Counted from the first letter of the stretch, positions 1 through 55,665 are shown. The stretch is DNA of 64,000 nucleotides from Paludibacteraceae bacterium (GCA_045616645.1 JAZLHD010000179.1:5633-69632), one strand, 5' to 3'. Program-made: numbers and translations. Notes: generated from the letters alone by a model not told the origin.

Positions 1-258
1 TTAGGAACAAGCGGTAAACGCAGGTGGTTCTCTATCACCCCCATCTGACTGAGGACCGTCTTGATACCACTGGGATTACCTTCGATAAATAAGTATTTGA
101 CTAAGTCCGCGTAGTGGTCTTGAAGTGCTTGGTCAGCGTTATGCACTATCTGTCCAAACGCCTCCGGATAAGCATTGGAGGCAACGGAGATAAGTCCGTC
201 CGCACCGGCTGCCATCAGCTCGGCTGCGAGGTTGTCGTCACCACTGAATATTTTTAGT
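1..258 (-). pseudogene. dapA: dapA 3' portion (C-terminal part of 4-hydroxy-tetrahydrodipicolinate synthase). It is out of frame with the 5' portion and continues past the window start.
   Basis: Manual translation of minus-strand codons 248->3 gives FSGDDNLAAELMAAGADGLISVASNAYPEAFGQIVHNADQALQDHYADLVKYLFIEGNPSGIKTVLSQMGVIENHLRLPLVP, a typical DapA C-terminus. The frame is offset by 1 nt from ORF 259..837. A TAG at 279-281 blocks upstream extension in this frame. Confidence 0.85.
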
Positions 259-837
259 TTAGAGTGTAGAGAAGCCGTCTAGTTTAATAGTTGAAAGTTT
301 TATGAGTTTTTTGATTTGTTTGATATTACCGGAGGCTTCTTTGATACCCATAATCTTGTCGGGATAGGCCTCATAGATACGCATCACCGTCTCAGGCAAG
401 AGGTTCACGCCCGTGCGCCCGGGCACGTTATATAAGATAATAGGTACAGGACTAACCTTCGCTATCGCGGAGAAATGTTGAAACAACCCCTCTTGAGAAG
501 GTTTGTTGTAGTAAGGGCAAACGCTCAAAATGGCTGAGCAATACTTGCTGAGTGCCGATTGTTGATTGTTGATTCTATTGATAAGCGCTTGAGTGTTGTT
601 CCCCCCAACGCCAAGGACGAGGGGTAGACGACCCTTTACCTTACGAATAATGAACTGCCATACGTTCAGTTTCTCCGGTTCAGTCATCGTCGCGGCTTCC
701 GCTGTGGTGCCAAGAACAACGAGAAAATCAACGTGCCCGGATAGTTGAATATCGAGCAATTTGTCTAGTCCTTCATAATCCACCGAGCCATCCGCGTGGA
801 AAGGAGTAATAAGGGCAGTGCCGAGACCGTGTATCAT
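259..837 (-). CDS. dapA: 4-hydroxy-tetrahydrodipicolinate synthase, N-terminal 192 aa, ending prematurely inside a heptamer repeat cassette
   Basis: The ORF contains TALITPF, LGTTAE, YNVPGRTG and the active-site region GIKEASGN. It terminates at CTC TAA (259-264) within the repeat instead of continuing to the SGDD motif. Confidence 0.9.
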   Translation of the reverse strand: MIHGLGTALITPFHADGSVDYEGLDKLLDIQLSGHVDFLVVLGTTAEAATMTEPEKLNVWQFIIRKVKGRLPLVLGVGGNNTQALINRINNQQSALSKYCSAILSVCPYYNKPSQEGLFQHFSAIAKVSPVPIILYNVPGRTGVNLLPETVMRIYEAYPDKIMGIKEASGNIKQIKKLIKLSTIKLDGFSTL

Positions 838-875
838 AGGCGTTTAGTTGTTTAGTTGTTTAGACGTTTAGGCGT

Positions 876-4922
<4,047 letters not shown>

Positions 4923-10600: not shown

Positions 10601-11177
10601 TGTGAATATCCTCGTACTCGATACGGAGGTTTATTCGAATACGGGTGGTCAGGCATCCAAATCGACGCCTCTGGGTGCTATTGCTAAGTTTGCTGCCATG
10701 GGTAAGCGCGTGCGTAAGAAAGACTTAGGTATGATTGCTACCACGTATGGTTATGTTTATGTTGCTCAAGTGGCGATGGGTGCGGACCAAGCACAGACAC
10801 TGAAAGCCATCCGCGAAGCAGAGGCTTATCCCGGACCATCGCTTATCATCGCTTATGCTCCTTGTATCAACCATGGTTTGAAAGCGGGTATGGGTAAGTC
10901 GCAAGAAGAGGAGGCAAAAGCTGTGGCTTGTGGTTACTGGCACTTGTGGCGGTATAATCCACAATTAGAAGTTGAGGGTAAGAACCCCTTCACCTTGGAT
11001 AGCAAAGAACCTCAATGGGAGCAGTTTGAAGACTTCCTTAAGGGCGAAGTGCGCTTTGCCAGTGTGATGAAACAATATCCTAACGAGGCAGCCGAACTCT
11101 TCCAAGCCGCACAAGATAACGCTAAGTGGCGCTATCGCAGTTACTTGAGAATGCTTGCCACCGATTGGACCAAATAA
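7635..11177 (+). CDS. nifJ: pyruvate:ferredoxin (flavodoxin) oxidoreductase
   Basis: 1180-aa ORF. N-terminus GNTAAAHIAYMFTEVAAIYPITPSS, two ferredoxin-like motifs (CIECNKCAYVCPH, CLGCGNCVDVCP) and a TPP region GGDGASYDIGYGGLDH. Confidence 0.97.
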   Translation: MKEKKFLTCDGNTAAAHIAYMFTEVAAIYPITPSSPMAENVDEWAAGGRQNMFGEQVLVQEMQSEGGAAGAVHGSLAAGALTTTFTASQGLLLMIPNMYKIAGELIPTVFHVSARTLASHVLCIFGDHQDVMACRQTGFAMLAEGSVQEVMDLAGVAHLSTIKSRVPFLNFFDGFRTSHEYQKVEVVDMEDLRPLVDMEALNEFRQRALSPMRPVMRGMAENPDVFFTHRESCNTYYDKVADIVSDYMNEISKITGRTYRPFTYYGAPDAESMVIAMGSVCECLKEVIDYEAANGKKLGMINVHLYRPFSLKYLQEALPKSVKRICVLDRTKEPGANGEPLYLDVKDALQELGLTHIEVVGGRYGLGSNDTTPAQMLAVYENLNLPQPKNHFTVGINDDVTFTSLPVGEEIAMGDKSLFQAKFYGLGADGTVGANKNSVKIIGEGTDKYCQAYFSYDSKKSGGFTCSHLRFGDEPIRSTYLVTTPNFVACHVQAYLKMYDVTRGLQKGGTFLLNTIWSGDELKQNLPDKVKKYFAENDIRCYYINATKIAQEIGLGNRTNTILQSAFFRITEVIPVEKAVEEMKHFILKSYGKKGEDVVNKNYAAVDRGGEYHLLDIDPAWKNIEVKEESGVAGDPAFIANVVRPINAQAGDLLPVSSFKGIEDGTWPSGTAKYEKRGVSAFVPVWNADNCIECNKCAYVCPHACIRPFVLDEQEKQGFEAATREMKAPAALKGMHFRMQVGVMDCLGCGNCVDVCPGNPKLGKALTMVPLEGQEEEAKNWDYCVNNVKSKQDLIDIQSNVKNSQFATPLFEFSGACSGCGETPYLKLISQLFGDREIAANATGCTSIYSGSVPSTPYTTNEKGQGPAWSNSLFEDFCEYGLGMQIAHRKIKERLARLMTKAQDCTCCSEELKAMFREWLENKNSAEVTKRLYEPMVAAMTACGCDTCKQILQYKDHIVKRSQWIIGGDGASYDIGYGGLDHVIASGEDVNILVLDTEVYSNTGGQASKSTPLGAIAKFAAMGKRVRKKDLGMIATTYGYVYVAQVAMGADQAQTLKAIREAEAYPGPSLIIAYAPCINHGLKAGMGKSQEEEAKAVACGYWHLWRYNPQLEVEGKNPFTLDSKEPQWEQFEDFLKGEVRFASVMKQYPNEAAELFQAAQDNAKWRYRSYLRMLATDWTK

Positions 11178-11214
11178 TCACTAAACAATAAGCAATAATC
11201 AATAATCAATATTA
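11173..11214. repeat. degenerate heptamer tandem repeat AATAATC x6 bridging the nifJ stop and the next gene's ATG
   Basis: Units aataatc/actaaac/aataagc/aataatc/aataatc/aatatta read off at 7-nt spacing. The same unit recurs at 12433-12456 and 62774-62787, each time at a stop codon. Confidence 0.85.
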
Positions 11215-12437
11215 TGAAACGCTATCTTATTTTGGCTGTTTTAGCAGCAGTGGTAATGACGGGTTGTAAGAATCCTGCCAAGTCCGGTTTCCCACAATTA
11301 GACGAATGGGCAAAATATGTATATGAGGTTAAAACCTCTATCATTGGTTATCCGTGTACTCAATATGTTGCTCTCCAAGAGTATTATGAGTGGTACACAG
11401 CGAATAAATTAGGAACCGTTGCGTTTAACAACGTGGGTGATCCTTTTGCTTCTGAGGGAGGAATCTTTCCTACGAGTTCGACCACTTTTGAGCGTGAAGT
11501 ATTAGATTGGTTTGCTCCGTACTACGGCTACGAACAGGGGAAGTACTGGGGATTGGTAAGTAATAGCGGTACGGACGGTAATAACCATGGAATCTATTTT
11601 GGCGTCAATTATCTCTATGGCAAGACGGGACAAATGCCGATCTTCTATGTTTCGGACGAAGCACACTATTCCAATATGCGCTTAGCTGATTTGCAAAACT
11701 TGGATCTATGTCTCATTCCGTCCGACACAATGGGTCGCATGATTCCTGAAGAGTTAGAGAAACGCATCAATCCTAATCGTCCGTGCCTCATCGTGTATGC
11801 GATGGGCTCTACTTTGAAGGGGGCTATTGACGACCAAGCGGCTTTGAATGCGGTCTTGGCTAAGTTCCCAAAGATGGAAGTCTATCGTCACGTGGATGCC
11901 GCTTTGTTCGGTGGATACCTGCCCTTTACGGAATATAAAGATTTGCTTAATCAAGAGAAGATGGGATACCAATCCATCGCTATCAGTGCCCATAAATTCT
12001 TTGGTTCGGACGAACCCGGAGGATTATTCTTCACTTCCAAAGAGGTTTATGATGGACAGACACGTTATGATATCCCCTATCTAAATCAAAACATGAAGAT
12101 GATTAACTGTTCTCGCTCAACGCAAGCTCCGCTTAAGTTTTGGTGGCTCATTCATAAAGTAGGTGCTGATTGTTGGACAGAGCAAGCGAAGGCTATTTTG
12201 GAGGAGACTGCTTATTTTGATGCTAAACTGAATGAGATAGGGTATCCGCATTGGATTAATGATTTGAGTAACACGATTGTGTTGAAACGTCCAAATGAGA
12301 AGTTAATGAAGAAATATACTCTAGCCGCGGGTTATGATGACAAGATGGGTGGTGAAGTGTGCCACTTAGTCGTAATGCAACACGTGGACAAGAAATTAAT
12401 CAATCAGTTCGTTTACGACCTCCAAAATCTCCAATAA
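11214..12437 (+). CDS. PLP-dependent group II decarboxylase (histidine decarboxylase-like) with a lipoprotein signal peptide
   Basis: MKRYLILAVLAAVVMTGC lipobox. IGYPC..NNVGDPF, SNSGTDGNNHG and the PLP-lysine motif ISAHKFFG. Confidence 0.75.
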   Translation: MKRYLILAVLAAVVMTGCKNPAKSGFPQLDEWAKYVYEVKTSIIGYPCTQYVALQEYYEWYTANKLGTVAFNNVGDPFASEGGIFPTSSTTFEREVLDWFAPYYGYEQGKYWGLVSNSGTDGNNHGIYFGVNYLYGKTGQMPIFYVSDEAHYSNMRLADLQNLDLCLIPSDTMGRMIPEELEKRINPNRPCLIVYAMGSTLKGAIDDQAALNAVLAKFPKMEVYRHVDAALFGGYLPFTEYKDLLNQEKMGYQSIAISAHKFFGSDEPGGLFFTSKEVYDGQTRYDIPYLNQNMKMINCSRSTQAPLKFWWLIHKVGADCWTEQAKAILEETAYFDAKLNEIGYPHWINDLSNTIVLKRPNEKLMKKYTLAAGYDDKMGGEVCHLVVMQHVDKKLINQFVYDLQNLQ

Positions 12438-12454
12438 TCAATAATCAATCTTCA

Positions 12455-13933
12455 ATGCACAACATCCAAGCTGAGGCTTTTGACTGCCTTTTATGTTTCT
12501 CTGCACCGTGTAATAGTGCTTGTCCGAAGGGTTTGCATCCTGCGCGTGGCGTTCGTGCCATCCGTTTTGGTAATGCCGATTTAGCCGGACATTGGCTCAC
12601 CGATGCGTGTGCCGATTGCGATGCTCCTTGCGAGAAAGCGTGTATCCACCCCGACCAACCTATCCGTATACGAGAGATGGCAAAACAGGTGAATACGAAT
12701 ACTCTAAACTCTAAACTCTCCACTCTAAACTCAATAGATTTATCTATTGATTTCTGCGGTATCCATTGTGAGAACCCGTTCTTTCTCGCTTCGTCGGCTA
12801 TCGCCACGAACTACGAGATGATAGCGCGTGCCTTTGAGATGGGGTGGGGTGGCGTGTATTACAAGACCATCACGGACATTAAGATAGAGGAAGTTAGTCC
12901 TCGCTTTGATGCTATCAAGGATTTGAATAGAAGTTTTACGGGGTTCCGAAACATGGAACAACTCAGCGAGCAATCGCCTGAGGAGAACTTCGATATCATC
13001 AAACGACTCAAGCAAAACTATCCAACGAAGATTGTCGTGGCTTCCATTATGGGACAGACCGATGATTCGTGGGAGACGTTAGCCAAACAGGCTGAGGAGG
13101 CCGGAGCGGATATGCTCGAACTGAACTTCTCTTGCCCGCAGATGAAGACGCGTGGTTTAGGCTCCGACATAGGACAGAATCCCGAATTGGTGGCTTTCTA
13201 TACCACGTTTGTTAAACGGGCGGTATCGATTCCTGTCATTGCAAAGATGACTCCGAATATCACTTCGATGGTTCCCGTTGCCATGGCAGCTACCTTTGCC
13301 GGAGCAGATGCGATCTCAGCTATTAACACCATTAAGTCCGTCACGATGTCTCAAGCCAGTATGGTAAGTGGCAAACGAACGGTGAGTGGATATTCCGGCA
13401 ATGCGGTCAAACCGATTGCACTCAAACATATTCTGGATATGAGCAAGAACCCGATGCTGCAAATCTCGGGCAAACAACTGCAATTGAGTGGTATAGGCGG
13501 CATTGAGACCTGGCATGATGCGTTGGAGTTTATTCAACTCGGCTGCCAAAATGTGCAAGTCTGCACGGCGGTTATGCAATATGGCTATCGCTTGATAGAG
13601 GACCTCAAATTGGGCTTACAAAACTATATGGCGACTAACCATGTCAAATGCTTGCAAGACCTCGTAGGTTCGGAGTTGCACACGTTTGTGGCTCCCTCTC
13701 GTTTGGATCGTAAGACGCTGGTTTATCCTAAGTTCTTGCGTGACAAATGTGTCGGCTGCGGCCGCTGCTATGTCGCTTGCCAAGATGCCGGTCACCAAGC
13801 TATCGAGTTTGATTGGCAGACGCGTCAACCCAAACTCAATGGACATAAATGTGTAGGCTGTCACCTCTGTCGCTTCGTCTGTCAACAAGAGGCGATAGGT
13901 GATACCAATCGTATTCCCAAACCACAAAAATAA
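12455..13933 (+). CDS. dihydropyrimidine dehydrogenase PreA-like flavoprotein. It fuses a DPD-type N-terminal Fe-S segment with a C-terminal 2x[4Fe-4S] domain.
   Basis: N-terminal CLLCFSAPCNSACPKG resembles the DPD N-terminal cluster motif. DHODH/PreA-like core (FCGIHCENPFFLASS, LELNFSCPQM, SGIGGIETW). C-terminal CVGCGRCYVACQ and CVGCHLCRFVCQ. The start is moved to the ATG at 12455, because the track start overlaps the upstream gene. Confidence 0.8.
   Translation: MHNIQAEAFDCLLCFSAPCNSACPKGLHPARGVRAIRFGNADLAGHWLTDACADCDAPCEKACIHPDQPIRIREMAKQVNTNTLNSKLSTLNSIDLSIDFCGIHCENPFFLASSAIATNYEMIARAFEMGWGGVYYKTITDIKIEEVSPRFDAIKDLNRSFTGFRNMEQLSEQSPEENFDIIKRLKQNYPTKIVVASIMGQTDDSWETLAKQAEEAGADMLELNFSCPQMKTRGLGSDIGQNPELVAFYTTFVKRAVSIPVIAKMTPNITSMVPVAMAATFAGADAISAINTIKSVTMSQASMVSGKRTVSGYSGNAVKPIALKHILDMSKNPMLQISGKQLQLSGIGGIETWHDALEFIQLGCQNVQVCTAVMQYGYRLIEDLKLGLQNYMATNHVKCLQDLVGSELHTFVAPSRLDRKTLVYPKFLRDKCVGCGRCYVACQDAGHQAIEFDWQTRQPKLNGHKCVGCHLCRFVCQQEAIGDTNRIPKPQK
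12702..12736. repeat. heptamer cassette CTCTAAA x5 (ctctaaa ctctaaa ctctcca ctctaaa ctcaata), in frame in the PreA-like gene
   Basis: Read directly. It encodes [12 protein letters not shown] in the linker between the Fe-S segment and the flavin domain. Confidence 0.9.
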
Positions 13934-15329: not shown

Positions 15330-16126
15330 TGAAATACGCGGCTACAATCGGTTTCTTCGATGGTGTTCATTTAGGGCACCAATACCTCCTCTCCTGTTTG
15401 AAAGAGGAGGCGGCGAAGCGTGGGTTGCAGTCAGCGATTGTGACCTTTGATGAACACCCTCAACAAGTCTTGCGGGGTGAAGCACCGTTGTTACTTACGA
15501 CTTTTAATGAGCGTATCACGCGATTGAGGTTTACCGGAGTAGATAAGGTAATCAGTTTTGATTTTGATCGCATTCACACCCTGTCAGCGGACGAGTTTGC
15601 ACAACTCCTTCACGATTCCTATGACGTCGATGTCCTCATTATGGGCTATGACCACCGCTTTGGTTGTACCAATCACAAATCACAAATCACCAATCACCAA
15701 TTAGAAATCATCCGTCTTCCCGAACTTCCTTCCAACCAACATGTGTCTTCTACTCAGATACGGCAAGCTCTTTTGAAAGGGGAGATAGTCAAGGCTAACG
15801 AGATGTTAGGTTACGCATATACTTTGATGGGAAAAGTGGTTCATGGCAAAGGGTTGGGACGGACGATTGGTTTTCCGACGGCAAACATTGAGGTAGAAAA
15901 AGATAAACTTATTCCTGCTCCAGGCGTTTATAGCGCCGAATGGAATGATAAAAAAGTCCTCCTCAATATCAACGACACCATCGAGATGTATGTTCCTCAT
16001 TTTGAGGGCGATTTATATGACCAAACCCTCTTTGTCGAACTCATCGCTCGTGTACGAGGGGAAAAACACTTTGATAATTTAGAAGATTTAAAAATACAAA
16101 TACAAAAAGATCTTTTATCATTATGA
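15329..16126 (+). CDS. ribF: bifunctional riboflavin kinase / FMN adenylyltransferase
   Basis: GFFDGVHLGHQ at the N-terminus and the kinase motif GKGLGRTIGFPTANI. At 265 aa it is shorter than I recall typical RibF (~310 aa). Confidence 0.9.
   Translation: MKYAATIGFFDGVHLGHQYLLSCLKEEAAKRGLQSAIVTFDEHPQQVLRGEAPLLLTTFNERITRLRFTGVDKVISFDFDRIHTLSADEFAQLLHDSYDVDVLIMGYDHRFGCTNHKSQITNHQLEIIRLPELPSNQHVSSTQIRQALLKGEIVKANEMLGYAYTLMGKVVHGKGLGRTIGFPTANIEVEKDKLIPAPGVYSAEWNDKKVLLNINDTIEMYVPHFEGDLYDQTLFVELIARVRGEKHFDNLEDLKIQIQKDLLSL
15670..15697. repeat. heptamer cassette (C/A)AATCAC x4 inside ribF
   Basis: caatcac aaatcac aaatcac caatcac encodes TNHKSQITNHQ directly after GYDHRFG. Confidence 0.9.
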
Positions 16127-18849
16127 AATCACCAATCACCAATCACAAATCACAAATCACCAATCACAAATCACAATTCACAATTCTTCTCTTATCCTTT
16201 GTCCTTTGTCCTTTGTCCCTTTTTGCTGCTGTTCGTACTGTAGACGAGGCGGCTGCTCTCGCATCGACGTTTAGGAACGAGACCGTAGTCGGACCTCATA
16301 AAGCACCCACATCGGCGGCTTCGATGCAACTCATTCACCAACGCACGAAACTCCAAAGCGAAGAGCCGGCTTTCTATATCTTTAACACTGCCAACGAGAG
16401 TGGGTATGTTATCGTCAGTGCCGATGACCGCACGGAGGAGATCTTAGGTTATTCCGAGCAAGGTTCCTTGGATTATGCAAATCTCAACCCAAATATGGCG
16501 TTTTGGTTGCGTCTCTTACAAGAGGCTATCTCGGCAACCAACGATACGAACACCTCTGCCAAAGCACCGATGGCAACGACGGCTATCGGTCCACTACTTG
16601 TTAATAAAGAGGGTAAGGAGATAACGTGGTATCAAGAGGCTCCCTATTCTAATCTGTGCCCATTAGATTCGGATAACAAACGCTGTTTGACGGGTTGCGT
16701 GGCTACGGCAGCAGCACAAGTGATGTACAAATGGTGTTACCCCAAACAGGGTATTGGTACCCATTCCTATGAATGGACGAACTCGGCAGGAAAGGAGAAA
16801 ACACTGACGGTTGATTACGGAAACACCACCTACGATTGGGGAAATATGCTCCCTTCCTATTTGTATAAATCCTCTACTTCCAAGCAAAAAACCGCCGTGG
16901 CAACACTCATGTACCATGCCGGTGTGGCTTGTAATATGCAATATTCGTCACAAGGTAGTGGCTCTTTAACGGATCTCATGGCGAACGGATTGGTAGATTA
17001 TTTTGGTTATCAGGTGGATAAGTTTATCACTACCTATTCGTCACGGTATTATCCTTCTGATTTTAAACCGACAGAGTATAAGGTTTCTATTACTAAGTTC
17101 ACCGAGTATTTCAATGCCGACTTAGAGAATGGTTATCCTATCATCATGGGCGGTGAGGATAGCGATGGCGGGCACGAGTTTGTGTGCGATGGACGAGATG
17201 CGCAAGGGAAATTTCATATTAACTGGGGTTGGGAAGGCGATAGCAATGGCTTCTTCTCCTTATCGGCATTAAAGGTAGATGGTTATAACTTTTCCTCGAA
17301 CATCGACGCGATCATCGGTCTGCGCCCGGCTAGCATGGATACGATTCACGTCACTTCCGTTTCGGTCAGTCCTGCTTCTACCACACTGAAAATCAATGAG
17401 CGCAAGCAACTGACGGTAACGATTCAGCCTACGAACGCAACCGACAAAAAAGTATCCTATACTTCTTCCAACCTCGAAGTAGCACAAGTCTCTGAACTCG
17501 GTGTCGTTCGTGCGGTGGGTGCAGGTAAGGCGAAAATAACGGTTACAACCAGTGATGGAGGGTTAACTGCGGTAAGCAATATCACCGTTACCAATGAGTA
17601 TGTCCCTTCGGATATTTTTGAGTTAGTGACTGATGCCTCGTCCCTTCAAGAGGGCGATGACATCATCATGGCAGCCACTTATAGCAATGTCCATTATTGC
17701 TTAACCAACTCCATGCATGCTACAACCAACACCAACTATGCCGACTGCGAACAAGTGCAGATTGTGGATAATACCATCACGATAGAAGACAATTCGAATA
17801 TCGCAATCTACAAGTTGGGTATTCAAGATGGAGCTTGGACGCTAATCAATGCAGATGGAAAGAAATTAGGTGCCTTGGGTGCCAAGAAACTGAGCTTTGA
17901 TTTGGGTTCGGTAACGTGGACACTGGACACCAAAAACAATAACACCACCATTGCGAACACCAACACTTCCTATGGTCGTATCTTGTACAATAACAATAAT
18001 AACAATCCTCGTTTCAGTATCTATACTTCTAACACCTCTAACACGATGTTGTTACCGCAAGTTTATGCGCGTAAAAGAAATCAGCCGGTAGAGGTGGTTA
18101 AAGTGACGGGGATAGAGTTAGGTCAGACTTCCGCACAGATGCTCGTTGACGAAGAGATTTTCCTCTATTATGCTGTCAAACCGGTAGCGGCAACGAACCA
18201 AGCGGTGATGTGGACTTCGTCTAATACGAAGGTGGCTGTCGTGGATCCTTCTCACCATTCGCTGGAGGATGAAAAGACCGTTTCTATTAAAGCCATCGCT
18301 GAGGGAGAGGCTACGATTACGGCAAAGACCCTGGATGGAGGCTTTGTAGCTACTTGCGTGATTACCGTCACCGAACAACCTATTGTGCCGACGGATACTA
18401 CTTTTATTATGGCTTCGGAGGCGAAAACGATTGCTATGCAGTTACCTGCAGGCGATCAAACGACAGACTTCTATGGAGTCAAGGGATATGTCACGGTCAA
18501 AAACTCTGTCGAATATCAGGGCTTTTGGTTGGACGATGAGCCGACTGCTAAAGAGACTTTCCAAGGCTTCCAATGCGCTATGCCGGATGACCACCTCTAC
18601 TTACAAATAGGAGAGTACGTGTGCGTCTATGGGTATCTCATGAACTATAACAACGAGAAGGCGCAGATTAAGAATGGTACGGTTGAGGTCTTAGATATAC
18701 CCGTTCCGCAAGGTTTATTGGATCCCTCTGCCTATCCGCCTTTCAGCCCATCTGCCTCTCAGCCGATCATGAAAGTTTTGGAGCATGGTCAGATGCTCTT
18801 CCTCCGTGCTGCAAAGAAGTACAACGTCTTAGGTTGCCCGATAAAGTAA
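16123..18849 (+). CDS. secreted C10-family (streptopain-like) cysteine peptidase with Big_2 Ig-like domains
   Basis: Catalytic-Cys context CLTGCVATAAAQVMYKW and His context GGHEFVCDG. Two Big_2-like segments (VTSVSVSP...ITVTN; VTGIELG...ITVTE). ATGA overlap with ribF. Confidence 0.85.
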   Translation: MKSPITNHKSQITNHKSQFTILLLSFVLCPLSLFAAVRTVDEAAALASTFRNETVVGPHKAPTSAASMQLIHQRTKLQSEEPAFYIFNTANESGYVIVSADDRTEEILGYSEQGSLDYANLNPNMAFWLRLLQEAISATNDTNTSAKAPMATTAIGPLLVNKEGKEITWYQEAPYSNLCPLDSDNKRCLTGCVATAAAQVMYKWCYPKQGIGTHSYEWTNSAGKEKTLTVDYGNTTYDWGNMLPSYLYKSSTSKQKTAVATLMYHAGVACNMQYSSQGSGSLTDLMANGLVDYFGYQVDKFITTYSSRYYPSDFKPTEYKVSITKFTEYFNADLENGYPIIMGGEDSDGGHEFVCDGRDAQGKFHINWGWEGDSNGFFSLSALKVDGYNFSSNIDAIIGLRPASMDTIHVTSVSVSPASTTLKINERKQLTVTIQPTNATDKKVSYTSSNLEVAQVSELGVVRAVGAGKAKITVTTSDGGLTAVSNITVTNEYVPSDIFELVTDASSLQEGDDIIMAATYSNVHYCLTNSMHATTNTNYADCEQVQIVDNTITIEDNSNIAIYKLGIQDGAWTLINADGKKLGALGAKKLSFDLGSVTWTLDTKNNNTTIANTNTSYGRILYNNNNNNPRFSIYTSNTSNTMLLPQVYARKRNQPVEVVKVTGIELGQTSAQMLVDEEIFLYYAVKPVAATNQAVMWTSSNTKVAVVDPSHHSLEDEKTVSIKAIAEGEATITAKTLDGGFVATCVITVTEQPIVPTDTTFIMASEAKTIAMQLPAGDQTTDFYGVKGYVTVKNSVEYQGFWLDDEPTAKETFQGFQCAMPDDHLYLQIGEYVCVYGYLMNYNNEKAQIKNGTVEVLDIPVPQGLLDPSAYPPFSPSASQPIMKVLEHGQMLFLRAAKKYNVLGCPIK
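16126..16181. repeat. heptamer tract (C/A)AATCAC x8 between the ATG and the hydrophobic core of the C10 peptidase signal peptide
   Basis: Eight consecutive 7-nt units are counted from 16126. A second heptamer CCTTTGT x3 at 16196-16216 encodes part of the hydrophobic core. Confidence 0.9.
18725..18764. repeat. octamer cassette (NNNNNGCC x5, reverse orientation of GGCTGAGA) in the C-terminal linker of the C10 peptidase
   Basis: cctctgcc tatccgcc tttcagcc catctgcc tctcagcc encodes PSAYPPFSPSASQP. Confidence 0.85.
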
Positions 18850-18934: not shown

Positions 18935-21601
18935 TTAATCGCAGAGGGGAGCGAAGGGGCAGGAAGTGCATTTATTGTAAGTGTCTTCCGTACAAGGGAA
19001 GGGGTTTTCGGGATGGCGTATCTCTTCAATCAGTTTCTTTACATAACCCAGAAACTCGTCTCTGATTTCCTCTACCTTCACAGACTCTTGCCCCTTCTGA
19101 TGTACTGCCGTCTCGGCTCCTTGCGCCAGCGACCGTACCCCATAGATGTGCGGTTCGCCCTGTCCATAAAGGATAGCATAGAGAATCGTCTGCAAAGCGT
19201 ACCCATTGCGCTTGCTGTCCGTCGGGTCAAAGAGCGAAGCTATCGAAGCGAACTCTGTTTCCGACCCGCCCGTCTTGTAATCGACTATTCTGATAGGCAG
19301 AGAGGCGGAAAGGCTGATAGGCTGAGGGGAATCGACTCGGTCGATGGTGCCTTTGAGGGTGACGATAGTGCCATCGTCCAACGTAAGCTCCATTCGACGC
19401 GGCTGCTCAGTTGCGATATATTGGAAAGGTGCTAAAGCAAGGTCGTGTTCGAGAATAAGACGGGCGTATTCCCTCAGTAACGTCGAAAGTAAGTCTTCAC
19501 CCTTCGGCAACGACTGTAACATCTTATTCACATCCTCCTTCGTCACCTCCTTCCCCACAAACGGCTCGTAACAGTTCTGCAAGATAAGATGCAGTTTCGT
19601 ACCTAACTCGCGAGGATCAATCTCCTCCGTCACTTCCTCCGGCTCTTGCAAACCACGGATATATTGCCAATAATATAGTTTCGGACAACGAAGGTACGTG
19701 TTTAAGCCCGAAGGGCTAAATGAGTTGAGAGTGGAGAGTGTAGAGTTTAGAGTAGTTTTATAGTTGAGAGTTGAGAGTGGAGAGGCAGAAAGGCTGATAG
19801 GCTGAGAGGCAGAAAGGCTGAGAGGCTGAGAGGCGGAAAGGTGGATGATGGGGTGCTTAAACTGGTATTGCAACTGATAGAGGTAACGACTGGGTTCACC
19901 CGAGTGCTGCTCATCGGTTCGGGTATTGGAGAGCAACCACACATCCTTGGCATAACTAATCATCCGATAGAAGTTATAAGCAAAAATAGCGTCCTTGCGC
20001 TCCGACGTAGGCAATGCTGCCTTGCAACGGAAAGAGTAGGGAATAAAACTATTAGCAATACTGTTCCCGGGATAGATATCATCATTAAAACTCGTGATAA
20101 TCAAATGCTCAAAGTCCAACGCACGCGTCTCTAATACACCCATAATCTGTAAGCCCTCAAGAGGTTCGCCCCTATATGCTATCGTTTCAGTTTGGAGCAA
20201 AGCCCCTACCAAGCCTCCCCCCGAAGGGGAGGATGTGTTAGGCTGAGAGGCGGAAAGGCTGAGAGGCTGAGAGGCGATGTATTTATCAATCCGATTGAGG
20301 ACCGTTTGGATCTTATAGACGGCTTCGGAGGCATCTTCGGGCAAGTGGTTCAGTATCTCGCGCCAGCGTTGGTCATCCTCGGAGAAGATACAAGACAAAT
20401 ACTCGTCTTTCTCGAAATACGAAACAGGAACATAGATGAGGTTCTGCTTGACCATCGCTTCTTGAATGCTCGCACAAGCCTCGGCACTCAGCCGTTGGAT
20501 ATACGGGTGCGACAAAACCGACTTCACATCCTTGTAATAAAACCCATTCTCCGTTCGACGACGATAAAGGTCCACTATAATCTGAATAAGTGCAAACACC
20601 GGTGTCGCTACCAACGGATAACCTGCCGTGACGTTGATCTTATCTATGTCTTCGGGTAAGGTGTGCAACAAAGGCAGTAACAATCGCTCATCGGGCATCA
20701 CAACTGCCGTCTTGGTCAATGGTAAGGGCCTTTCTAACTCGCTTAAGATACGATGTACCTCCTGCGCCTCGCCTACCGTAGAGGTTAGTTCTACCCAGTG
20801 TATCTCAGGAAAATGAACCTCACTCTGAGGCACTGTAAAACGAGAGTGGAAGAGTTTTTGGTTGTGCTCCATAAACAGAGACGAACGGTTGTCTTTATCC
20901 GTCACCCATGGATGTGAATAATCAAAATAGAAGTCGGCTCTGCCTTGTTCTTGCAAGAGAACCATCAATCGTTCCTCACTCTGCGTTAAGGCATTGAACC
21001 CGATAAAAACAAACTGCTGGTCGGGGTGCTCATCAAGCCAAGCCACTTGTTCCGCTTCCAACGCTGTAATCACCTCGCGATGAAGCATTCCATCGTAAGC
21101 CAGCCCCTCGCGTCGTAACTCGTCTTGCAGACGTTGGTAGATAATATCCAATGGCGGATAAGGAATGAAAGGAGCTTGTCCCTCGGTTTGGAAAGAGGCT
21201 TCTATATCGTGTGCCTCGCGGATATTAAGCAAAAAGCCAATAGGGTTATCTACTAAGTGATTGTCTATCTCATTAAAATCCCCAATCATCATCTTTCCCC
21301 AGAAAAGGAAAGTATCTAAATCTTCCTCCGTCAGTCCTTGTTCTCGTCTTATCTCGTTATGGATGCGGTAAACGCGCAAAAGTAAGTCTATCGGGTCTGC
21401 TAATTGGGTATTGGTGAACTGATAGAAACAGTCATTGATAGTCAGAATCGTTGGTGAAAGAGTCGGTTTGCCGCACGCTATTCCGAGGTCTCTGCGAAAG
21501 AAAAGACCTGCCCGCTGGTTGGGGAAAACAAACGTGTAAGAGGATAACTTATCTCCTACGTTTTGGGCGAAGAGCCTTGCCAAGTTTTGTAAATAACTCA
21601 T
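18935..21601 (-). CDS. PD-(D/E)XK nuclease family protein (AddB/RecB-like nuclease with a C-terminal Cys cluster)
   Basis: C-terminal GTIDRVD...RIVDYKTGG...QTILYAILYG nuclease motifs and CTEDTYNKCTSCPFAPLC. The start is set at MSYLQNLARLF (ATG 21599-21601). The track start at 21643 extends further into the antiporter gene. Confidence 0.75.
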   Translation of the reverse strand: MSYLQNLARLFAQNVGDKLSSYTFVFPNQRAGLFFRRDLGIACGKPTLSPTILTINDCFYQFTNTQLADPIDLLLRVYRIHNEIRREQGLTEEDLDTFLFWGKMMIGDFNEIDNHLVDNPIGFLLNIREAHDIEASFQTEGQAPFIPYPPLDIIYQRLQDELRREGLAYDGMLHREVITALEAEQVAWLDEHPDQQFVFIGFNALTQSEERLMVLLQEQGRADFYFDYSHPWVTDKDNRSSLFMEHNQKLFHSRFTVPQSEVHFPEIHWVELTSTVGEAQEVHRILSELERPLPLTKTAVVMPDERLLLPLLHTLPEDIDKINVTAGYPLVATPVFALIQIIVDLYRRRTENGFYYKDVKSVLSHPYIQRLSAEACASIQEAMVKQNLIYVPVSYFEKDEYLSCIFSEDDQRWREILNHLPEDASEAVYKIQTVLNRIDKYIASQPLSLSASQPNTSSPSGGGLVGALLQTETIAYRGEPLEGLQIMGVLETRALDFEHLIITSFNDDIYPGNSIANSFIPYSFRCKAALPTSERKDAIFAYNFYRMISYAKDVWLLSNTRTDEQHSGEPSRYLYQLQYQFKHPIIHLSASQPLSLSASQPISLSASPLSTLNYKTTLNSTLSTLNSFSPSGLNTYLRCPKLYYWQYIRGLQEPEEVTEEIDPRELGTKLHLILQNCYEPFVGKEVTKEDVNKMLQSLPKGEDLLSTLLREYARLILEHDLALAPFQYIATEQPRRMELTLDDGTIVTLKGTIDRVDSPQPISLSASLPIRIVDYKTGGSETEFASIASLFDPTDSKRNGYALQTILYAILYGQGEPHIYGVRSLAQGAETAVHQKGQESVKVEEIRDEFLGYVKKLIEEIRHPENPFPCTEDTYNKCTSCPFAPLCD
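19296..19327. repeat. octamer cassette GGCNGANA x4 inside the nuclease core of the AddB-like gene
   Basis: ggcagaga ggcggaaa ggctgata ggctgagg. It encodes QPISLSASLP between IDRVD and RIVDYK. Confidence 0.9.
19725..19847. repeat. composite array: heptamer family (TTGAGAG/TTTAGAG, 19725-19784) abutting octamer family (GGCTGAGA x8, 19784-19847)
   Basis: Units were read off base by base. It encodes SASQPLSLSASQPISLSASPLSTLNYKTTLNSTLSTLNS in frame. Confidence 0.9.
20200..20272. repeat. 38-nt palindromic element (20200-20237) followed by octamer cassette GGCTGAGA x4 (20241-20272), in frame in the AddB-like gene
   Basis: The reverse complement of 20200-20237 is cacatcctccccttcggggggaggcttggtaggggctt. 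It matches 32490-32527 at 36/38 positions. Confidence 0.9.
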
Positions 21602-23432: not shown

Positions 23433-24535
23433 AATTGGATAACTTCTTGCGCTATTCGAGTGGCGGAATTAGTTTGTGCTAACGTTAGTACATTGGTGTG
23501 TAGGTCTTGCAGTCGTTCGTTGTTGGCTAATAACTCTACGGCCGTCGGAACCAGTTGCTCGTGAGCGTCTATATCCTTCACTAAGACGGCGGCATTCTTG
23601 TGAACCAGTGCCATGGCGTTGTGTGTCTGATGGTCTTCAGCTACGTTGGGTGAGGGCACAAGAACGGACGGTTTGCCCAATAGGCAGAGTTCGGATATCG
23701 AACTCGCTCCTGCACGAGAGATAACCAAATCGGCTAACGCATAAACGTCCGGCATATTACTGATAAACGGTGTAACGATAAGACGCGGGTTGTTCCATAG
23801 CCCTTGTTGCGTTAACTGTTCGCGGAGCTTGTCAAAGTAAATCTTTCCCGTCTGCCAAATAACTTGTATATCCTTGTCTAATAACAGATGGATGTCCTTT
23901 AGCAGACTCTCATTGATGGTTCTTGCCCCTAATGATCCACCGATGATAAGCAACGTCTTATGCTTCTCGTCAAACGTTCTGTCAAACTCCTGTTGCAGAT
24001 ACTGGAGCGCACCCGCTTTTGTGCCTTGTGTGAGGTTCTGACGCACAGGGTTGCCCGTTAAGATAATCTTCTCTTTGGGGAAGAAACGTTCCATGTTCTC
24101 GTAAGCGACGCAGATCTTAGCAGCATCGTCTTTGAGCATTTTATTCGTCAGTCCCGCAAAGCCATTCTGTTCTTGTAATAGGATGGGAATACCCATCTTA
24201 GCCGCTACGCGCATAGCTGCACCGCTGGCGTAACCGCCTACACCCACACCTACATTGGGACGGAAATCTTGTATCACTTTTTTGGCCTTAACAAGCGAAC
24301 GGATTAAGTTCACCATCACGCTTACGTTTTTCCATGGTTGGCTGCGGTTAAACCCTTGTATAGGCAAACCAATGATGTCATAACCCGCTTGGGGTACACG
24401 TTCCATCTCCATTCTTCCAAGAGCACCGATAAACAGAATCTCGGCTTGAGGGTCTAACTCTTTGATGGCATTGGCAATACTAATGGCAGGGAAGATGTGA
24501 CCGCCGGTGCCGCCACCGCTAATAAGGTATCTCAT
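23420..24535 (-). CDS. murG: UDP-N-acetylglucosamine--N-acetylmuramyl-(pentapeptide) pyrophosphoryl-undecaprenol GlcNAc transferase
   Basis: ISGGGTGGHIFPAISIA motif. The start is set at MRYLISGGG (ATG 24533-24535), one nt after the ftsW stop. Confidence 0.93.
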   Translation of the reverse strand: MRYLISGGGTGGHIFPAISIANAIKELDPQAEILFIGALGRMEMERVPQAGYDIIGLPIQGFNRSQPWKNVSVMVNLIRSLVKAKKVIQDFRPNVGVGVGGYASGAAMRVAAKMGIPILLQEQNGFAGLTNKMLKDDAAKICVAYENMERFFPKEKIILTGNPVRQNLTQGTKAGALQYLQQEFDRTFDEKHKTLLIIGGSLGARTINESLLKDIHLLLDKDIQVIWQTGKIYFDKLREQLTQQGLWNNPRLIVTPFISNMPDVYALADLVISRAGASSISELCLLGKPSVLVPSPNVAEDHQTHNAMALVHKNAAVLVKDIDAHEQLVPTAVELLANNERLQDLHTNVLTLAQTNSATRIAQEVIQLCKH

Positions 24536-24536
24536 G

Positions 24537-27136: not shown

Positions 27137-27140
27137 AAAC

Positions 27141-28412: not shown

Positions 28413-28417
28413 TTTTT

Positions 28418-28459: not shown

Positions 28460-29905
28460 TCAAATATAGCGACGCACCACTTCGTGGTCGTCAAAATGAT
28501 GTTTCACACCTTTAATAATCTGATAATCCTCGTGCCCTTTACCGGCAACGAGAATCACATCGTTCGCCTTTGCCATCATACACGCGGTCTTAATCGCCAT
28601 CTCTCTATCCTCAATCACTAAGGTACTCTTCATCTCTTCCTCACTCAACCCATCGGTCATGTCGCGTAGGATATCCTTCGGTTCCTCATCGCGTGGGTTA
28701 TCGCTGGTCAGTATCAATTGGTCAGACCCCTCTTTGGCAATCTTCGCCATCATCGGACGTTTGCCTTTGTCGCGATTACCGCCACACCCTACGACCGTAA
28801 TCAACTGTCCTTTCTTATTCAGTATCTCGCGAATCGTCTGAATCACATTATCTACCGCATCGGGGGTGTGAGCATAATCGATGATGGCTGTCCAACCTTT
28901 CTCACTGCGTATTGCCTCAAAACGCCCATTGACTGGGGTGAGTGTAGATAGCACCCTTAATACTTCCATCTGCTCAAAACCCAAACACAAGGCTGTACCA
29001 TAGATACAGAGTAGGTTGCTGACATTAAACCGCCCTACCAAAGGAACGAACACTTCTTTGCCATTGATATTGAGCATCATGCCTTCAAATCCTTCCTCTA
29101 AGATCTGCGCCTTATAATCCGCCAACGAACGGGTGGAGTAGGTGTGTACTTTCGCCTTCGTGTTTTGCGTCATCACTAATCCGTTCTTATCATCTTTGTT
29201 GGTGACGGCAAACGCATTTTTCTTCAGTCCGTCAAACAGTCTTTTCTTGGTGTCTCGATAGTTGTCAAACGTCTTGTGATAATCAATATGGTCGCGTGTG
29301 AGGTTCGTGAACATCGCCCCATCAAAATCCAATCCTGCAATGCGCTCTTGTGCTATAGAGTGACTGCTAACCTCCATAAAACAATACTCGCAACCGGCAT
29401 CCACCATCTGTCGCATTAGTCCATTCAGTGCCAACGCGTCGGGTGTGGTGTGGGTACTGGGTATAGCCTCGTTTTCTATATAGTTCACTACTGTCGAGAG
29501 TAGTCCCGCTTTGTGACCCATCGCGCGCACGAGTTTATATAATAAGGTAGCAATCGTCGTTTTCCCGTTTGTGCCTGTTACGCCCACCAATATCAATTGT
29601 TCACTCGGTCTTCCGTAGAAATTGCTTGCCATCAGTCCCAACGCTTTGTTCGTGTCTTTGACTTGGATATAGGTGCAACCCTCGCTCATCTGCTCGGGCA
29701 TCACTTGACACACAATCGCCTTAGCGCCTTGTGCTATGCATTGCTCAATGAACGTGTGTCCATCTACGGCTGTTCCTGTCTGCGCAACGAACACTTCGCC
29801 GGAGCTGATTTTGCGGGAGTCAAACTCGATTCCGCTAACCTCTACATCCATCGAACCATGTACGTTTTCGATGTTGATGTCTTTCAATAAATCGTGTAGT
29901 TTCAT
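28460..29905 (-). CDS. murE: UDP-N-acetylmuramoyl-L-alanyl-D-glutamate--2,6-diaminopimelate ligase
   Basis: GVTGTNGKTT P-loop and DNPR motif (LTSDNPRDE). Confidence 0.95.
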   Translation of the reverse strand: MKLHDLLKDINIENVHGSMDVEVSGIEFDSRKISSGEVFVAQTGTAVDGHTFIEQCIAQGAKAIVCQVMPEQMSEGCTYIQVKDTNKALGLMASNFYGRPSEQLILVGVTGTNGKTTIATLLYKLVRAMGHKAGLLSTVVNYIENEAIPSTHTTPDALALNGLMRQMVDAGCEYCFMEVSSHSIAQERIAGLDFDGAMFTNLTRDHIDYHKTFDNYRDTKKRLFDGLKKNAFAVTNKDDKNGLVMTQNTKAKVHTYSTRSLADYKAQILEEGFEGMMLNINGKEVFVPLVGRFNVSNLLCIYGTALCLGFEQMEVLRVLSTLTPVNGRFEAIRSEKGWTAIIDYAHTPDAVDNVIQTIREILNKKGQLITVVGCGGNRDKGKRPMMAKIAKEGSDQLILTSDNPRDEEPKDILRDMTDGLSEEEMKSTLVIEDREMAIKTACMMAKANDVILVAGKGHEDYQIIKGVKHHFDDHEVVRRYI

Positions 29906-33910: not shown

Positions 33911-34378
33911 TATCTCTCACAGATTCCACAGATTACGCTGATTGATTGATAATTTATTATTTTTTTATTTCTTTTTTTCGTTAGTTGTGAGTAAACTCCC
34001 ACTACCAAAAAAGAAGAACTAAAAAAGGGAATGTTCCTAACGTCACATCCCGTGCCTAACGGCACTAATAACAAATTATATAGGGATATATTGCACAGAC
34101 GTGAGGAGAGAGTAAAGTTTAGAGTGTAGAGTTTAGAGTGTAGAGTAGCCGTCTAGTTTATAAGTTTAGAGTTTAAAGGCAGAGAAATTCTGTGGAATAA
34201 AACCGCTAATAAGCCCTTATTGTGGATGCGAAAGCAGACACGGCGGGTGAACGAAGTGAACCAGCACCTACTATTGATATATTTGATGGATGGGAGTTTA
34301 CTCACAATCCGAGAATAAATAAATAGGAGGAATAAAAAAACAGAAAATCAGAGGAATCTGTGAAATCTGTGAGAGATA
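33911..34378. repeat. long imperfect inverted repeat: arms 33911-34001 and 34291-34378, about 289-nt centre
   Basis: Two collinear pairs. 33911-33934 pairs with 34355-34378 (23/24). 33985-34001 pairs with 34291-34307 (17/17, ttgtgagtaaactccca). Confidence 0.85.
34118..34178. repeat. intergenic heptamer cassette TTTAGAG/TGTAGAG with the core tagccgtctagtttataag
   Basis: tttagag tgtagag tttagag tgtagag + core + tttagag tttaaag. The core plus flanks closely match the dapA cassette (258-291). Confidence 0.9.
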
Positions 34379-52525: not shown

Positions 52526-53587
52526 ATGGAAACTTTATTTAATGATGGTACATACTTTAATTACACGTTTCCAGAGCCTCAATATCTAGGCGCTAAATAT
52601 TTGCATCGTGCTTGGATTGCTCAATTTGTTCCCAAAGAAGCCAATGTAGTGTTAGATGCTTTTAGTGGATCGCAATCTATTGCGTATATGATGAAGCAGT
52701 TGGGAAAGCAAACCATAACTAATGACTTCATGAATTTCAATAATCAAATAGGAAAGGCGTTAATTGAAAATCATGGTGTCAAACTTACGAAGGATGATTT
52801 AGATATTTTATTTGCTTCCAATACAAATCCTACTGAATATGATTTAATGGAACGCTTATTCTCTAATTTGTTTTTTGTTCGAGAAGAAGCTATATTTCTT
52901 GATGCTTTCCGTAGTAATGTTTCGCGGTTGATGTGTCCCTATAAACAAGCATTAGCGTTGACGGTAATGTGTCGTAGTTTAACTAGGAAAGTTACAATGG
53001 GACACTTTGCGCACACTCAAGCACTTGCATATGCCGAAGACCAAGAAAGAATTAAACGTAATAGAAGTTTAATTCGCCCTCTTAAAGACTTGTTTTTGGA
53101 TTTACTGCCGCAATATAATAATGCCGTCTTTGATAATAATCAAGATAATCGCAGTTACAATCAAAATATTCTTGATTTACTTCCGATGACCAAGAATGTT
53201 GATCTTGTATATTTTGATCCCCCTTATTGTAATAGTCATGCAGATTACCAGTCTTTTTACCATCTTCTTGAGACATTTGTAGAATATTGGAAAGATAAAG
53301 AATTTGTAAATGGCACAAAACGTTATGAGCCTAAACGTTGGAGTGGCTTTGACAAAAACGGAGAGGCAATTGATAATCTTCAACGGATGTTTGCCTCTGC
53401 GCAACATATACCGACATGGTTGGTAAGTTATAATGATCGTAGTTATCCAGATATTGAAACGATGGTCAGTATGATAGAGCCATACCGCAATGTTCGTGTA
53501 GAACGCAAAAGGTATATAAATGGTAGAGGAGGTAAGGGAAGTGTTGCTGGCAGTAATGAAATATTATTCGTCTGTACAACTAAATAA
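52526..53587 (+). CDS. site-specific DNA adenine (N6) methyltransferase, D12/Dam-like class
   Basis: YLGAKY near the N-terminus, an FxGxG-type AdoMet motif (DAFSGSQS) and the catalytic DPPY (VYFDPPYCN). The gene is visibly AT-rich. Confidence 0.85.
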   Translation: METLFNDGTYFNYTFPEPQYLGAKYLHRAWIAQFVPKEANVVLDAFSGSQSIAYMMKQLGKQTITNDFMNFNNQIGKALIENHGVKLTKDDLDILFASNTNPTEYDLMERLFSNLFFVREEAIFLDAFRSNVSRLMCPYKQALALTVMCRSLTRKVTMGHFAHTQALAYAEDQERIKRNRSLIRPLKDLFLDLLPQYNNAVFDNNQDNRSYNQNILDLLPMTKNVDLVYFDPPYCNSHADYQSFYHLLETFVEYWKDKEFVNGTKRYEPKRWSGFDKNGEAIDNLQRMFASAQHIPTWLVSYNDRSYPDIETMVSMIEPYRNVRVERKRYINGRGGKGSVAGSNEILFVCTTK

Positions 53588-53598: not shown

Positions 53599-54687
53599 AT
53601 GACAAACTTTGAAAAGTGGGATATAGAATTTCGTAATCAGAATCTTTTTGCATTTAATAATAACTTGAATGCCTTACTTTGGCTCAAGGTTCGTGCGGTT
53701 TGTCGCGGAAAGCAAATCAAGCAATTTATTGGAGTTAACAAATTAACCATTCAATCTACTAAACTCAATGAGCAATTTGTTGAGCTCTTTGAACTCATGG
53801 AACGAACTAAAGATGGCATGGCTATGCTTGACCAATATCTGCGTAATCGTAACAATGAATGGTATCGTGAAATGGGGGTTGATGAAGAAAAACTCAAAAG
53901 CGGATTACGCCAAATAACGCATTATGAATGGGGCGGAGACCAAGAAAACTCTCTTGATCAATATCTTGTTCGACGCTATATTAAGGTAATTAGTGACTTT
54001 GATGAACTCAAAAGTAAAGCAGACGCTATTGCTGCGAATGCGTGGAAATTTGTACAAACAAGTTGGTATAATAATTGGACATCTTATTTAATAGAATCCA
54101 TCTTCAAAAAACATAAACGGGTATTATCTGCTGTTGGAGAAATTAAAAGTGTGGATTTCTTCATAGATGATTATCCAATAGATCTTAAAGTTACGTATTT
54201 TCCTGATGCATACATGCAGGATAAACTTAAAGACGAACTTGGAAATTATGAGCTAACATGGCTAAAGCATCAAGCAAAATCTTGTGGTATTGTACCAGAC
54301 AAGAATCTTTCAGAAAAGGAGCAATATGCTTTCTTGAGAGAAGAGTTGAGCAATCATGGTCATACAGACATTCTTGAACAGCTTACCAAAAGTAGAAAAA
54401 AGATTGTAGATGGTACGCGTAAGAATCCGGAAAACCTTATGCGTTGGTTATATGAGAATCAAAGTCCTCGCTTGTTTGGTGCAGAAAATAGACTTTTTGT
54501 GGTACTGATTGACTCAACTGATATGGAACAATCTTGGAAGATGAAACGAGCTTTTTCTTTGATTGAACCTCAAGTCAACAAATATCTCGACGAGTTCTCC
54601 AAAAATTGTTTGAAAAGGATTGATTTTACGTTTAATAATAAACAATATTCAAGTTTTGCGGATATTATTTTTGTGGTGAAGGAATAA
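53599..54687 (+). CDS. candidate type II restriction endonuclease (PD-(D/E)XK-like), partner of the methyltransferase
   Basis: It starts 11 nt downstream of the methyltransferase with the same AT-rich composition. It has a possible D...(D/E)xK core (VDFFIDDYPIDLKV). I recognise no family. Confidence 0.5.
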   Translation: MTNFEKWDIEFRNQNLFAFNNNLNALLWLKVRAVCRGKQIKQFIGVNKLTIQSTKLNEQFVELFELMERTKDGMAMLDQYLRNRNNEWYREMGVDEEKLKSGLRQITHYEWGGDQENSLDQYLVRRYIKVISDFDELKSKADAIAANAWKFVQTSWYNNWTSYLIESIFKKHKRVLSAVGEIKSVDFFIDDYPIDLKVTYFPDAYMQDKLKDELGNYELTWLKHQAKSCGIVPDKNLSEKEQYAFLREELSNHGHTDILEQLTKSRKKIVDGTRKNPENLMRWLYENQSPRLFGAENRLFVVLIDSTDMEQSWKMKRAFSLIEPQVNKYLDEFSKNCLKRIDFTFNNKQYSSFADIIFVVKE

Positions 54688-54885: not shown

Positions 54886-55491
54886 ATGTTTATTTTTGAC
54901 ATTATGATATGCAACATTATTTTAGATATGGGTGGTGTGCTTATGCAGCACAATATCCCGGGGTGCATAGCTCGCCTCAAAGAACTGACGGGAGCCAATT
55001 TCCCTCGTTTGGGGATGGACGATAAAGGTGAAGGAACAGAATTGATGGGACAGTTTGAACGAGGCTTAGTCTCGTTAGACGATTTTCTCACGCAGATTCT
55101 TGCTCTTTGTCGGCAGGGCACGACTCGCGAACAGGTATTAGAGGCATGGATTACTATTCATGCAGGTATTCCCGCGGAGCGCTTGAACTATGTGCATCAA
55201 CTCAAAGCACAAGGTTATCGCCTTTATTTGCTTTCCAATAATAATGATGCTTGTTGGCAAGACATTGCGAGTAAATACGATATGAGTGTGTTTGACGAAC
55301 TTTTCCTTTCGCATTGGATTCATATTATTAAGCCTGATGCCGCTTTGTTTGAATACGTACAAAAACGCTTGAATCTCAATCCTGAGGAGACCGTTTTTGT
55401 GGACGATATAGAGGTCAATCGTTTGGCTGCTCAAAGAGCAGTTGGTTGGCGCACTGCCGAATCGCTTGAGGCGTTGAAAGCGATGCTGTAA
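54886..55491 (+). CDS. HAD-superfamily hydrolase (YihX-like phosphatase subfamily)
   Basis: Motif I variant ILDMGGVL, LLSNNN (motif II) and VFVDDIEVN (motif IV). The alternative ATG at 54904 is equally possible. Confidence 0.75.
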   Translation: MFIFDIMICNIILDMGGVLMQHNIPGCIARLKELTGANFPRLGMDDKGEGTELMGQFERGLVSLDDFLTQILALCRQGTTREQVLEAWITIHAGIPAERLNYVHQLKAQGYRLYLLSNNNDACWQDIASKYDMSVFDELFLSHWIHIIKPDAALFEYVQKRLNLNPEETVFVDDIEVNRLAAQRAVGWRTAESLEALKAML

Positions 55492-55665
55492 ATCAGCCAT
55501 CAACCAACGTAGCACTTCGTAGGATGTACGTAGGATGCGTGTAGTATTAAAAAAAACGATAAAAATGGAATCATCCACTTATCTTTACGAGAGTTTTTGA
55601 CGAAGGGATTATAATGTTGCCTCCCGAAAAGTAGACACAGAAGGTAGATTTTATTTCTCTTTTAG

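Follow-up and report, generated by a model that had tools for sequence, protein, structure and literature searches.

Why should dapA be broken in a bacterium whose murE is of the DAP-adding type? The question arises from a stretch of 64,000 nucleotides of a Paludibacteraceae bacterium (hereafter the window), in which dapA occupies positions 1..837 of the minus strand, starts with an ATG at 837 and is split into two frames. murE (28460..29905, minus strand) carries the DNPR motif at residues 402-405, which bears out the assignment to the DAP-adding type made in an initial annotation of this DNA. A true dapA null cell would therefore need external DAP or a paralogue, and for this reason a fixed null allele would be surprising. 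murE is part of a cell-division and cell-wall cluster (21549-33608) comprising mraZ, rsmH, ftsI, murE, mraY, murD, ftsW and murG, which is followed by a Na+/H+ exchanger gene, not by murC and ftsQAZ. The initial annotation placed the break in a heptanucleotide repeat cassette, ascribed it to exactly one extra unit and named repeat-length heterogeneity in the population, an assembly error or a second dapA elsewhere as the options.

Results

dapA is one gene broken at a single point

The N-terminal fragment of dapA (259..837, minus strand; 192 aa) carries the catalytic-lysine motif IKEASG and ends ...GAC GGC TTC TCT ACA CTC TAA (peptide ...KLDGFSTL), with the premature TAA at 259-261, as the initial annotation had read it. 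The C-terminal part (1..278, minus strand) lies in the +1 frame, which is open after a TAG at 279-281 down to base 1. Its translation is TASLHSKLKIFSGDDNLAAEL...RLPLVP (also given as TASLHSKLKIFSGDDNLAAELMAAGADGLISVASNAYPEAF...RLPLVP), and homology starts at KLKIFSGDD, from approximately base 260 downwards. The 3' end of the gene lies outside the window edge by approximately 20 codons, and the missing end, taken from the protein P0122, reads ...NSESVQKLIQQCILSL. Both parts were compared with TIGR00674, the NCBIfam equivalog for dapA, whose curated cut-off for the whole protein is 206.15 bits. The N-terminal fragment covered profile positions 3-175 with 185.9 bits and the C-terminal fragment positions 175-269 with 79.2 bits. 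Each fragment alone scored below the cut-off, as expected of a split gene, and since the two abut on one dapA profile, they represent one gene broken at one point. The proposed continuation of DapA in a frame offset by 1 nt was thus confirmed by completion of the profile, and so was the repair of the ORF by removing one heptamer, because DapA with 265-271 deleted scored 265.9 bits over positions 3-269, above the cut-off.

The motifs expected of DapA from TIGR00674 and PF00701 are a GTTGE-type motif, YNxP, IKE[AS]SG and SGDD, together with the Schiff-base lysine; GTTAEA, YYNKP, YNVPGRTG, IKEASG and SGDD are present in the window at invariant columns of the relatives' alignment. The window dapA does not provide a single unbroken frame for the full (beta/alpha)8 barrel. 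P0020 (192 aa, identical to the N-terminal fragment) and P0122 (87 aa) are both found on one 96,138-bp NCBI contig, and the frameshift therefore belongs to the deposited sequence. No second dapA was found within the 64-kb window. An enzyme split into two peptides was also considered and rejected, as the sole start codon of the C-terminal frame gives MAAGADG... (P0122), without strand beta7 and SGDD.

The neighbourhood of dapA is conserved in relatives, which share the order PFOR, AAA_14, ferredoxin, ruvC, divIC / exo-endo-phosphatase, ligA, DUF6913, dapA and cstA. The DUF6913-family gene (876..1343, minus strand) lies upstream of dapA within the conserved segment ligA, DUF6913, dapA, cstA. Directly upstream of the dapA ATG, an octamer array, (CTAAACNN) x6 (838..886, minus strand), contributes the final codon and the stop codon of the DUF6913 gene. 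Relatives lack this array, and their DUF6913 and dapA genes overlap at ATGA (L081 9990-10004); with the array inserted in the window, the DUF6913 C-terminus reads …KIINA* as against …KIINKQS*, and the two genes are uncoupled. Elsewhere in the window, a low-GC segment (52000-57500; 0.37 vs approximately 0.46 elsewhere) contains a D12-class adenine methyltransferase gene (52526..53587), an ORF without family match (53599..54687) and 2 kb (55491-57499) with no plus-strand ORF of at least 120 aa, the start of which is overlapped by a 146-aa minus-strand ORF (55138..55578). This segment may be an acquired restriction-modification island.

The window cassette is 14 nt shorter than its closest alleles

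The break lies in a residual heptamer array (257..270, minus strand) consisting of TCTACAC (264-270) and TCTAAAC (257-263), and a degenerate terminal unit, TAAAAAT (250..256, minus strand), gives (L)KI when translated in the frame of the C-terminal part. The unit removed in the initial annotation, ctctaca at 265-271, is the TCTACAC unit rotated by one base. The conserved core CTAGACGGCTTC (271..282, minus strand), which codes for LDGF, lies between two heptamer arrays, of which the left one (AAACTTTCAACTATTAAA; 283..300, minus strand; coding for KLSTIK) is degenerate in the window and clearer in the relative L082 (TATCAAC TTTCAAC). Taken alone, the two units of the window are alike at 6/7 bases, statistically unremarkable and absent from the TRF list at score 30; they are validated as a heptamer repeat because orthologues have four such units at exactly the same site. 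A second heptamer array in dapA (557..574, minus strand; AATCAAC AATCAAC AATC) is in frame and codes for INNQQS, and relatives vary in its sequence and length.

Cassettes were compared downstream of the conserved GACGGCTTC in loci L081-L086 and L091-L097, which share synteny. After GGCTTC, the window reads TCTACAC TCTAAAC TA, and the closest alleles, those of L083, L093, L096 and L097, read TCTCAAC TCTCAAC TCTACAC TCTAAAC TA. The cassette of L082 is TCTAAAC TTTCAAC TTTCAAC TCTAAAC TT. Two further relatives, in which the flank is AACAACTAC instead, carry TCTAAAC TCTCAAC TCTCAAC TCTACAC TA (L084) and TCTAAAC TCTCAAC TCTAAAC TCTACAC TA (L086). All of these relatives have four units and are in frame. 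The window cassette corresponds to an L083-type allele without the first two units, and the distance from anchor to anchor is 126 vs 140 nt, a deficit of 14 nt, or 2 mod 3. A surplus of one unit and a shortage of two are arithmetically equivalent, and either correction restores the frame. Among unit-number variants of the L083-type allele, the in-frame states would be 1, 4 or 7 units, of which four is observed; shorter in-frame alleles in the clade read NSKLKIY (P0017) and NKLKIY, and cassette-free ones GKGFKVF. Comparison of these alleles makes it more parsimonious that a four-unit allele lost two units (14 nt) than that a unit was gained. The whole-unit change in heptamer copy number proposed in the initial annotation is thus upheld, whereas its exactly one extra unit would give way to two units lost from four.

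The closest full-length orthologue (L081, 91% DapA identity) carries an octamer, (CTACTCCC)x3, at the cassette site (L081 10540-10590 vs window 250-300), and the allele that the window cassette does match belongs to L083, which is less closely related (80% identity). Either the array has turned over, or recombination has left the cassette with a history at odds with that of its flanks. The orthologues recovered did not include an in-frame allele from the same strain. A pure (TCTAAAC)n array contains TAA in every frame; in coding arrays, the register C/TCT AAA/C is always filled by a TCTCAAC, TTTCAAC or TCTACAC variant.

The cassette is predicted to encode a surface loop

In P0007, the cassette inserts 16 residues that Thermotoga maritima DapA (1o5k, 3pb2) lacks, located after the helix that follows the catalytic-lysine strand and before the SGDD strand. 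In the AlphaFold2 model of the four-unit allele P0008 (mean pLDDT 89.6), cassette residues 183-198 are coil, with a helix (171-182) before and a strand (199-202) after them, and pLDDT is below 50 at residues 185-194. The cassette is accordingly modelled as a disordered surface loop leading from helix alpha6 to strand beta7 of the TIM barrel. This loop is a tolerant site, which explains the 0 to about 22 extra residues found among relatives. The 192-aa product, being without beta7, beta8 and the C-terminal domain/helices, should be inactive.

Orthologues are intact and the window copy shows no decay

All of the approximately 30 orthologues examined in relatives are in frame, and the window copy alone is out of frame. 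A protein search with the N-terminal fragment alone revealed no other truncated dapA alleles; one candidate, P0125 (198 aa), was discarded since it is cut by a contig end. Among the matches listed, a scan of genome contigs for the repaired DapA (YYNKPSQE pattern) gave distant Bacteroidales only, with at most 63% identity. Four independent samples share the L083-type four-unit cassette without a single base difference. The window DapA has no private substitutions at columns where at least 22/23 relatives agree, and no further stop, frameshift or second lesion was found in the window dapA. Its identity to relatives, 91-92%, is in line with that of the neighbouring genes.

Heptamer and octamer arrays abound in the window and its clade

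Exact tandem arrays in the window number seven with period 7 and three with period 8, against 0.0 in 20 dinucleotide shuffles, and other periods are not enriched. Across the clade (the window and L081-L100), 47 period-7/8 arrays were counted in 224 kb (0.21 per kb, the counts being not fully independent since some loci are near-duplicates), as compared with 39 arrays in 1.3 Mb (0.03 per kb) at the dapA loci of other Bacteroidales. The Paludibacteraceae-like lineage is thus approximately 7-fold enriched in heptamer/octamer arrays with one G-free strand. One strand is wholly G-free in 40 of the 47 exact arrays vs 3% of random 20-mers; this strand cannot G-C pair with itself, and no significant fold was found. 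The recurring units are TCTAAAC/TCTCAAC/TCTACAC (translated SKLSTLN), AAATCAC (translated TNHKSQI), AATAATC and the octamer GCCTCTCA (translated SASQPLSL). Wherever it was checked in the window, the sense strand of the host or downstream gene is the one that lacks G in arrays of the two main families, and both orientations occur for the GCCTCTCA octamer.

Many of these arrays are translated. In-frame arrays were found in ligA (2145-2174), a DHO-dehydrogenase-like gene (12701-12732), ribF (15671-15710), the N-terminus of a C10 peptidase (16126-16183) and, in opposite orientation, rsmH (32912-32950), and four lie in a PD-(D/E)XK nuclease gene between 19290 and 20275 (19290-19325, 19722-19841, 20240-20275). 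All intragenic arrays of the window are in frame except the dapA cassette. Intergenic arrays (838-886, 11173-11211, 12432-12449 and 28418-28448 in the window, L082 4960-5027, and the PFOR-decarboxylase spacer of L091-L093) end 0-5 nt upstream of start codons, in the window those of dapA (837), of genes starting at 11214 and approximately 12455, and of mraY (28412). Most of them are G-free on the sense strand, the octamer array at 838-886 being the exception, and they could serve as unstructured leaders in the Shine-Dalgarno-poor Bacteroidota. At orthologous sites, relatives have other unit numbers and even other unit families. In the PFOR-decarboxylase spacer, AATAATC gives way in relatives to ACTAACG or ACTAATG, repeated 4 to 9 times, and L081 has a different peptide at the site of the ligA cassette.

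The core of the dapA cassette is also found elsewhere. The sequence AACTAGACGGCT(T/A)C (also written CTAGACGGCT(T/A)C), with TCTAAAC-type heptamers on both sides, recurs at unrelated loci (window 271-282 and 34142-34156, minus strand; L082 3132-3143 and 4983-4994; L090 1482-1493). An intergenic paralogous composite (34107..34170, minus strand) reads TAAACTCTAAACTTATAAA-CTAGACGGCTAC-TCTACAC TCTAAAC TCTACAC TCTAAAC, and a further composite copy in L082 lies upstream of another gene. A JGI metagenome scan for AAACTAGACGGCTTCTCT gave 4 matches, of which L090 is a genuine composite at the end of what is, from its translation, a cytidylate-kinase-like ORF; the other three are chance matches in unrelated genes. 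The scan yielded no extra dapA alleles, and the core had no match in viral contigs. The recurrence of the core suggests that arrays may spread as a composite element or via conversion between arrays.

A recent contraction is the favoured explanation

We favour, with a probability of roughly 0.6, a genuine and recent microsatellite contraction that gave rise to a null allele present in the sequenced population. dapA contains a (TCTNNAC)n heptanucleotide microsatellite, and in the window genome this array would have contracted from four units to two when replication slipped, or recombination was unequal, across the identical pair of TCTCAAC units and removed 14 nt. The loss would shift the frame by +1. 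Units of coding arrays are adapted to avoid stops in their own register, so that a change in unit number that is not a multiple of three is immediately lethal to the protein; here, the 14-nt loss would put TCTAAAC in the register that reads CTC TAA, and an immediate stop after 192 residues would therefore produce a null allele. The event would be recent and the sole lesion in the gene, a non-adaptive accident in a lineage with array-saturated genomes.

The most serious rival, to which we give appreciable but clearly smaller weight, is an assembly or consensus artefact: the true cassette would have four units (or one), and the deficit would stem from assembly, polishing or strain bubble-popping. 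The 96-kb source contig has the look of a draft assembly or MAG, a single sample can contain several strains whose cassettes differ (L082 and L083 both come from ERZ1767638), and dapA has no other damage; moreover, a repeat-associated break in a gene of an essential pathway is what an error typically looks like. However, the periodic stretch of approximately 17 nt should be too short to collapse at usual k-mer sizes, and the deletion is of clean whole units, as biological slippage would give. In addition, approximately 30 other ORFs of the window have full-length Pfam coverage and none is frameshifted despite approximately 10 intragenic arrays of the same kind, which indicates that the general sequence quality is good.

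A broader reading, doubtful as it is, would make the dapA break collateral damage of an undescribed lineage-wide system, in which G-free-strand arrays, some around the core AACTAGACGGCT[T/A]C, are seeded upstream of starts and in housekeeping loops and are family-swapped in relatives. Such a system would imply active or templated spreading, or a leader function, beyond local slippage. In the literature searched, heptamer arrays are not described for Bacteroidales or Paludibacteraceae.

A phase-variable switch, in which the heptamer array would act as a contingency locus turning dapA off and on in the population, is improbable. Heptanucleotide SSRs act in this way in other bacteria, for example in Haemophilus influenzae (PMC2651432, PMC12721329), and the lesion is exactly unit-sized and reversible in principle. 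dapA is a housekeeping gene, however, not a surface or contingency gene, and every other intragenic array in the window stays in frame. Instead of several identical units, the window has two that agree at 6/7 bases and relatives have four with at most two adjacent identical ones; since the array is this short and imperfect, reversion would be slow. Nor do close strains show in-frame and out-of-frame lengths side by side, given the approximately 30 in-frame orthologues and the one four-unit allele shared by four independent samples, and the relatives' alleles gave no sign of rapid reversible switching of the cassette.

We consider it very unlikely that the window copy is an old pseudogene whose function has become unnecessary thanks to a second dapA, another route or scavenged DAP. 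The presence of the frameshift in the deposited record would agree with this idea, as would the octamer array, unique to this genome, that parts dapA from the upstream gene which it overlaps in relatives. Yet the lack of private substitutions at conserved columns and of a second lesion argues that the copy is not old, its identity to relatives matches that of the neighbouring genes, and the window holds no paralogue. Programmed recoding, by which +1 ribosomal frameshifting or transcriptional slippage would yield full-length DapA, is scarcely credible, for although the needed shift is +1 and just before the stop, superficially as in prfB, a P-site CUC cannot pair again on UCU after a +1 shift, the RNA fold (z = -1.19) lacks significance, there is no Rfam match, the longest homopolymer, A5, offers no substrate for transcriptional slippage, and all orthologues are in frame, which leaves nothing conserved.

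Discussion

Heptanucleotide units are known to shift frames via changes in copy number (PMC2651432). Like the SSR contingency loci of Haemophilus and Neisseria, the dapA lesion is a whole-unit change that leaves the downstream ORF out of frame. Unlike those loci, the dapA array is short and imperfect and lies in a housekeeping enzyme, and the relatives examined have in-frame alleles only. Read as a contraction, the dapA lesion is a mechanistically ordinary SSR slippage frameshift. What looks less familiar is the density of in-frame 7-/8-nt arrays in housekeeping enzymes, together with their shared unit families and shared core.

According to the account of Mrazek et al. (2007) given in PMC4679880, some prokaryotic genomes are rich in long SSRs with units of 5-11 nt, especially heptanucleotides, and SSRs in coding regions are mainly multiples of three. 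The window shows an excess of tandem arrays with 7- and 8-nt units over compositional expectation, the clade shows one over the dapA loci of other Bacteroidales, and, as in LSSR-rich genomes and in the STRR heptamers of Cyanobacteria, the period-7/8 excess is lineage-specific, with a few favoured units scattered. In contrast to LSSR-rich genomes, many arrays are here in frame in housekeeping genes even though neither 7 nor 8 is divisible by three. Arrays of the heptamer TAACTGA lie just upstream of starts in Beggiatoaceae, Cyanobacteria and a few Bacteroidetes (PMC4679880). The present arrays resemble them in that favoured heptamers stand a few nt upstream of start codons, with their orientation tied to the downstream gene; they differ in their units (TCTAAAC, AAATCAC, AATAATC and others), in the coexistence of several families and in being also translated in genes.

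Rickettsia palindromic elements are reportedly selfish palindromic repeats of approximately 100-150 bp that occur in frame in protein-coding genes. By analogy, they would be the nearest counterpart of in-frame repeats tolerated in essential genes: in both cases, repeats of shared sequence occupy loop-coding stretches of essential genes without breaking the frame, and would be tolerated as additional surface peptide. The present arrays differ from them in being tandem heptamers of 20-60 nt with one G-free strand, and are not palindromic.

The dapA case would represent a DAP-type cell-wall gene disabled by microsatellite contraction in an uncultured gut- or rumen-type member of the Bacteroidales. 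A variant that is both real and fixed predicts dependence on cross-feeding of DAP or lysine; if the lesion is an artefact instead, arrays of this kind are flagged as a hazard for MAG quality and for pseudogene calls. The lineage-wide arrays are the more interesting part, more so than the dapA break itself. In-frame arrays of 7- and 8-nt units constitute an unusual mutational load, and they offer a natural system for the origin and turnover of microsatellites in coding DNA.
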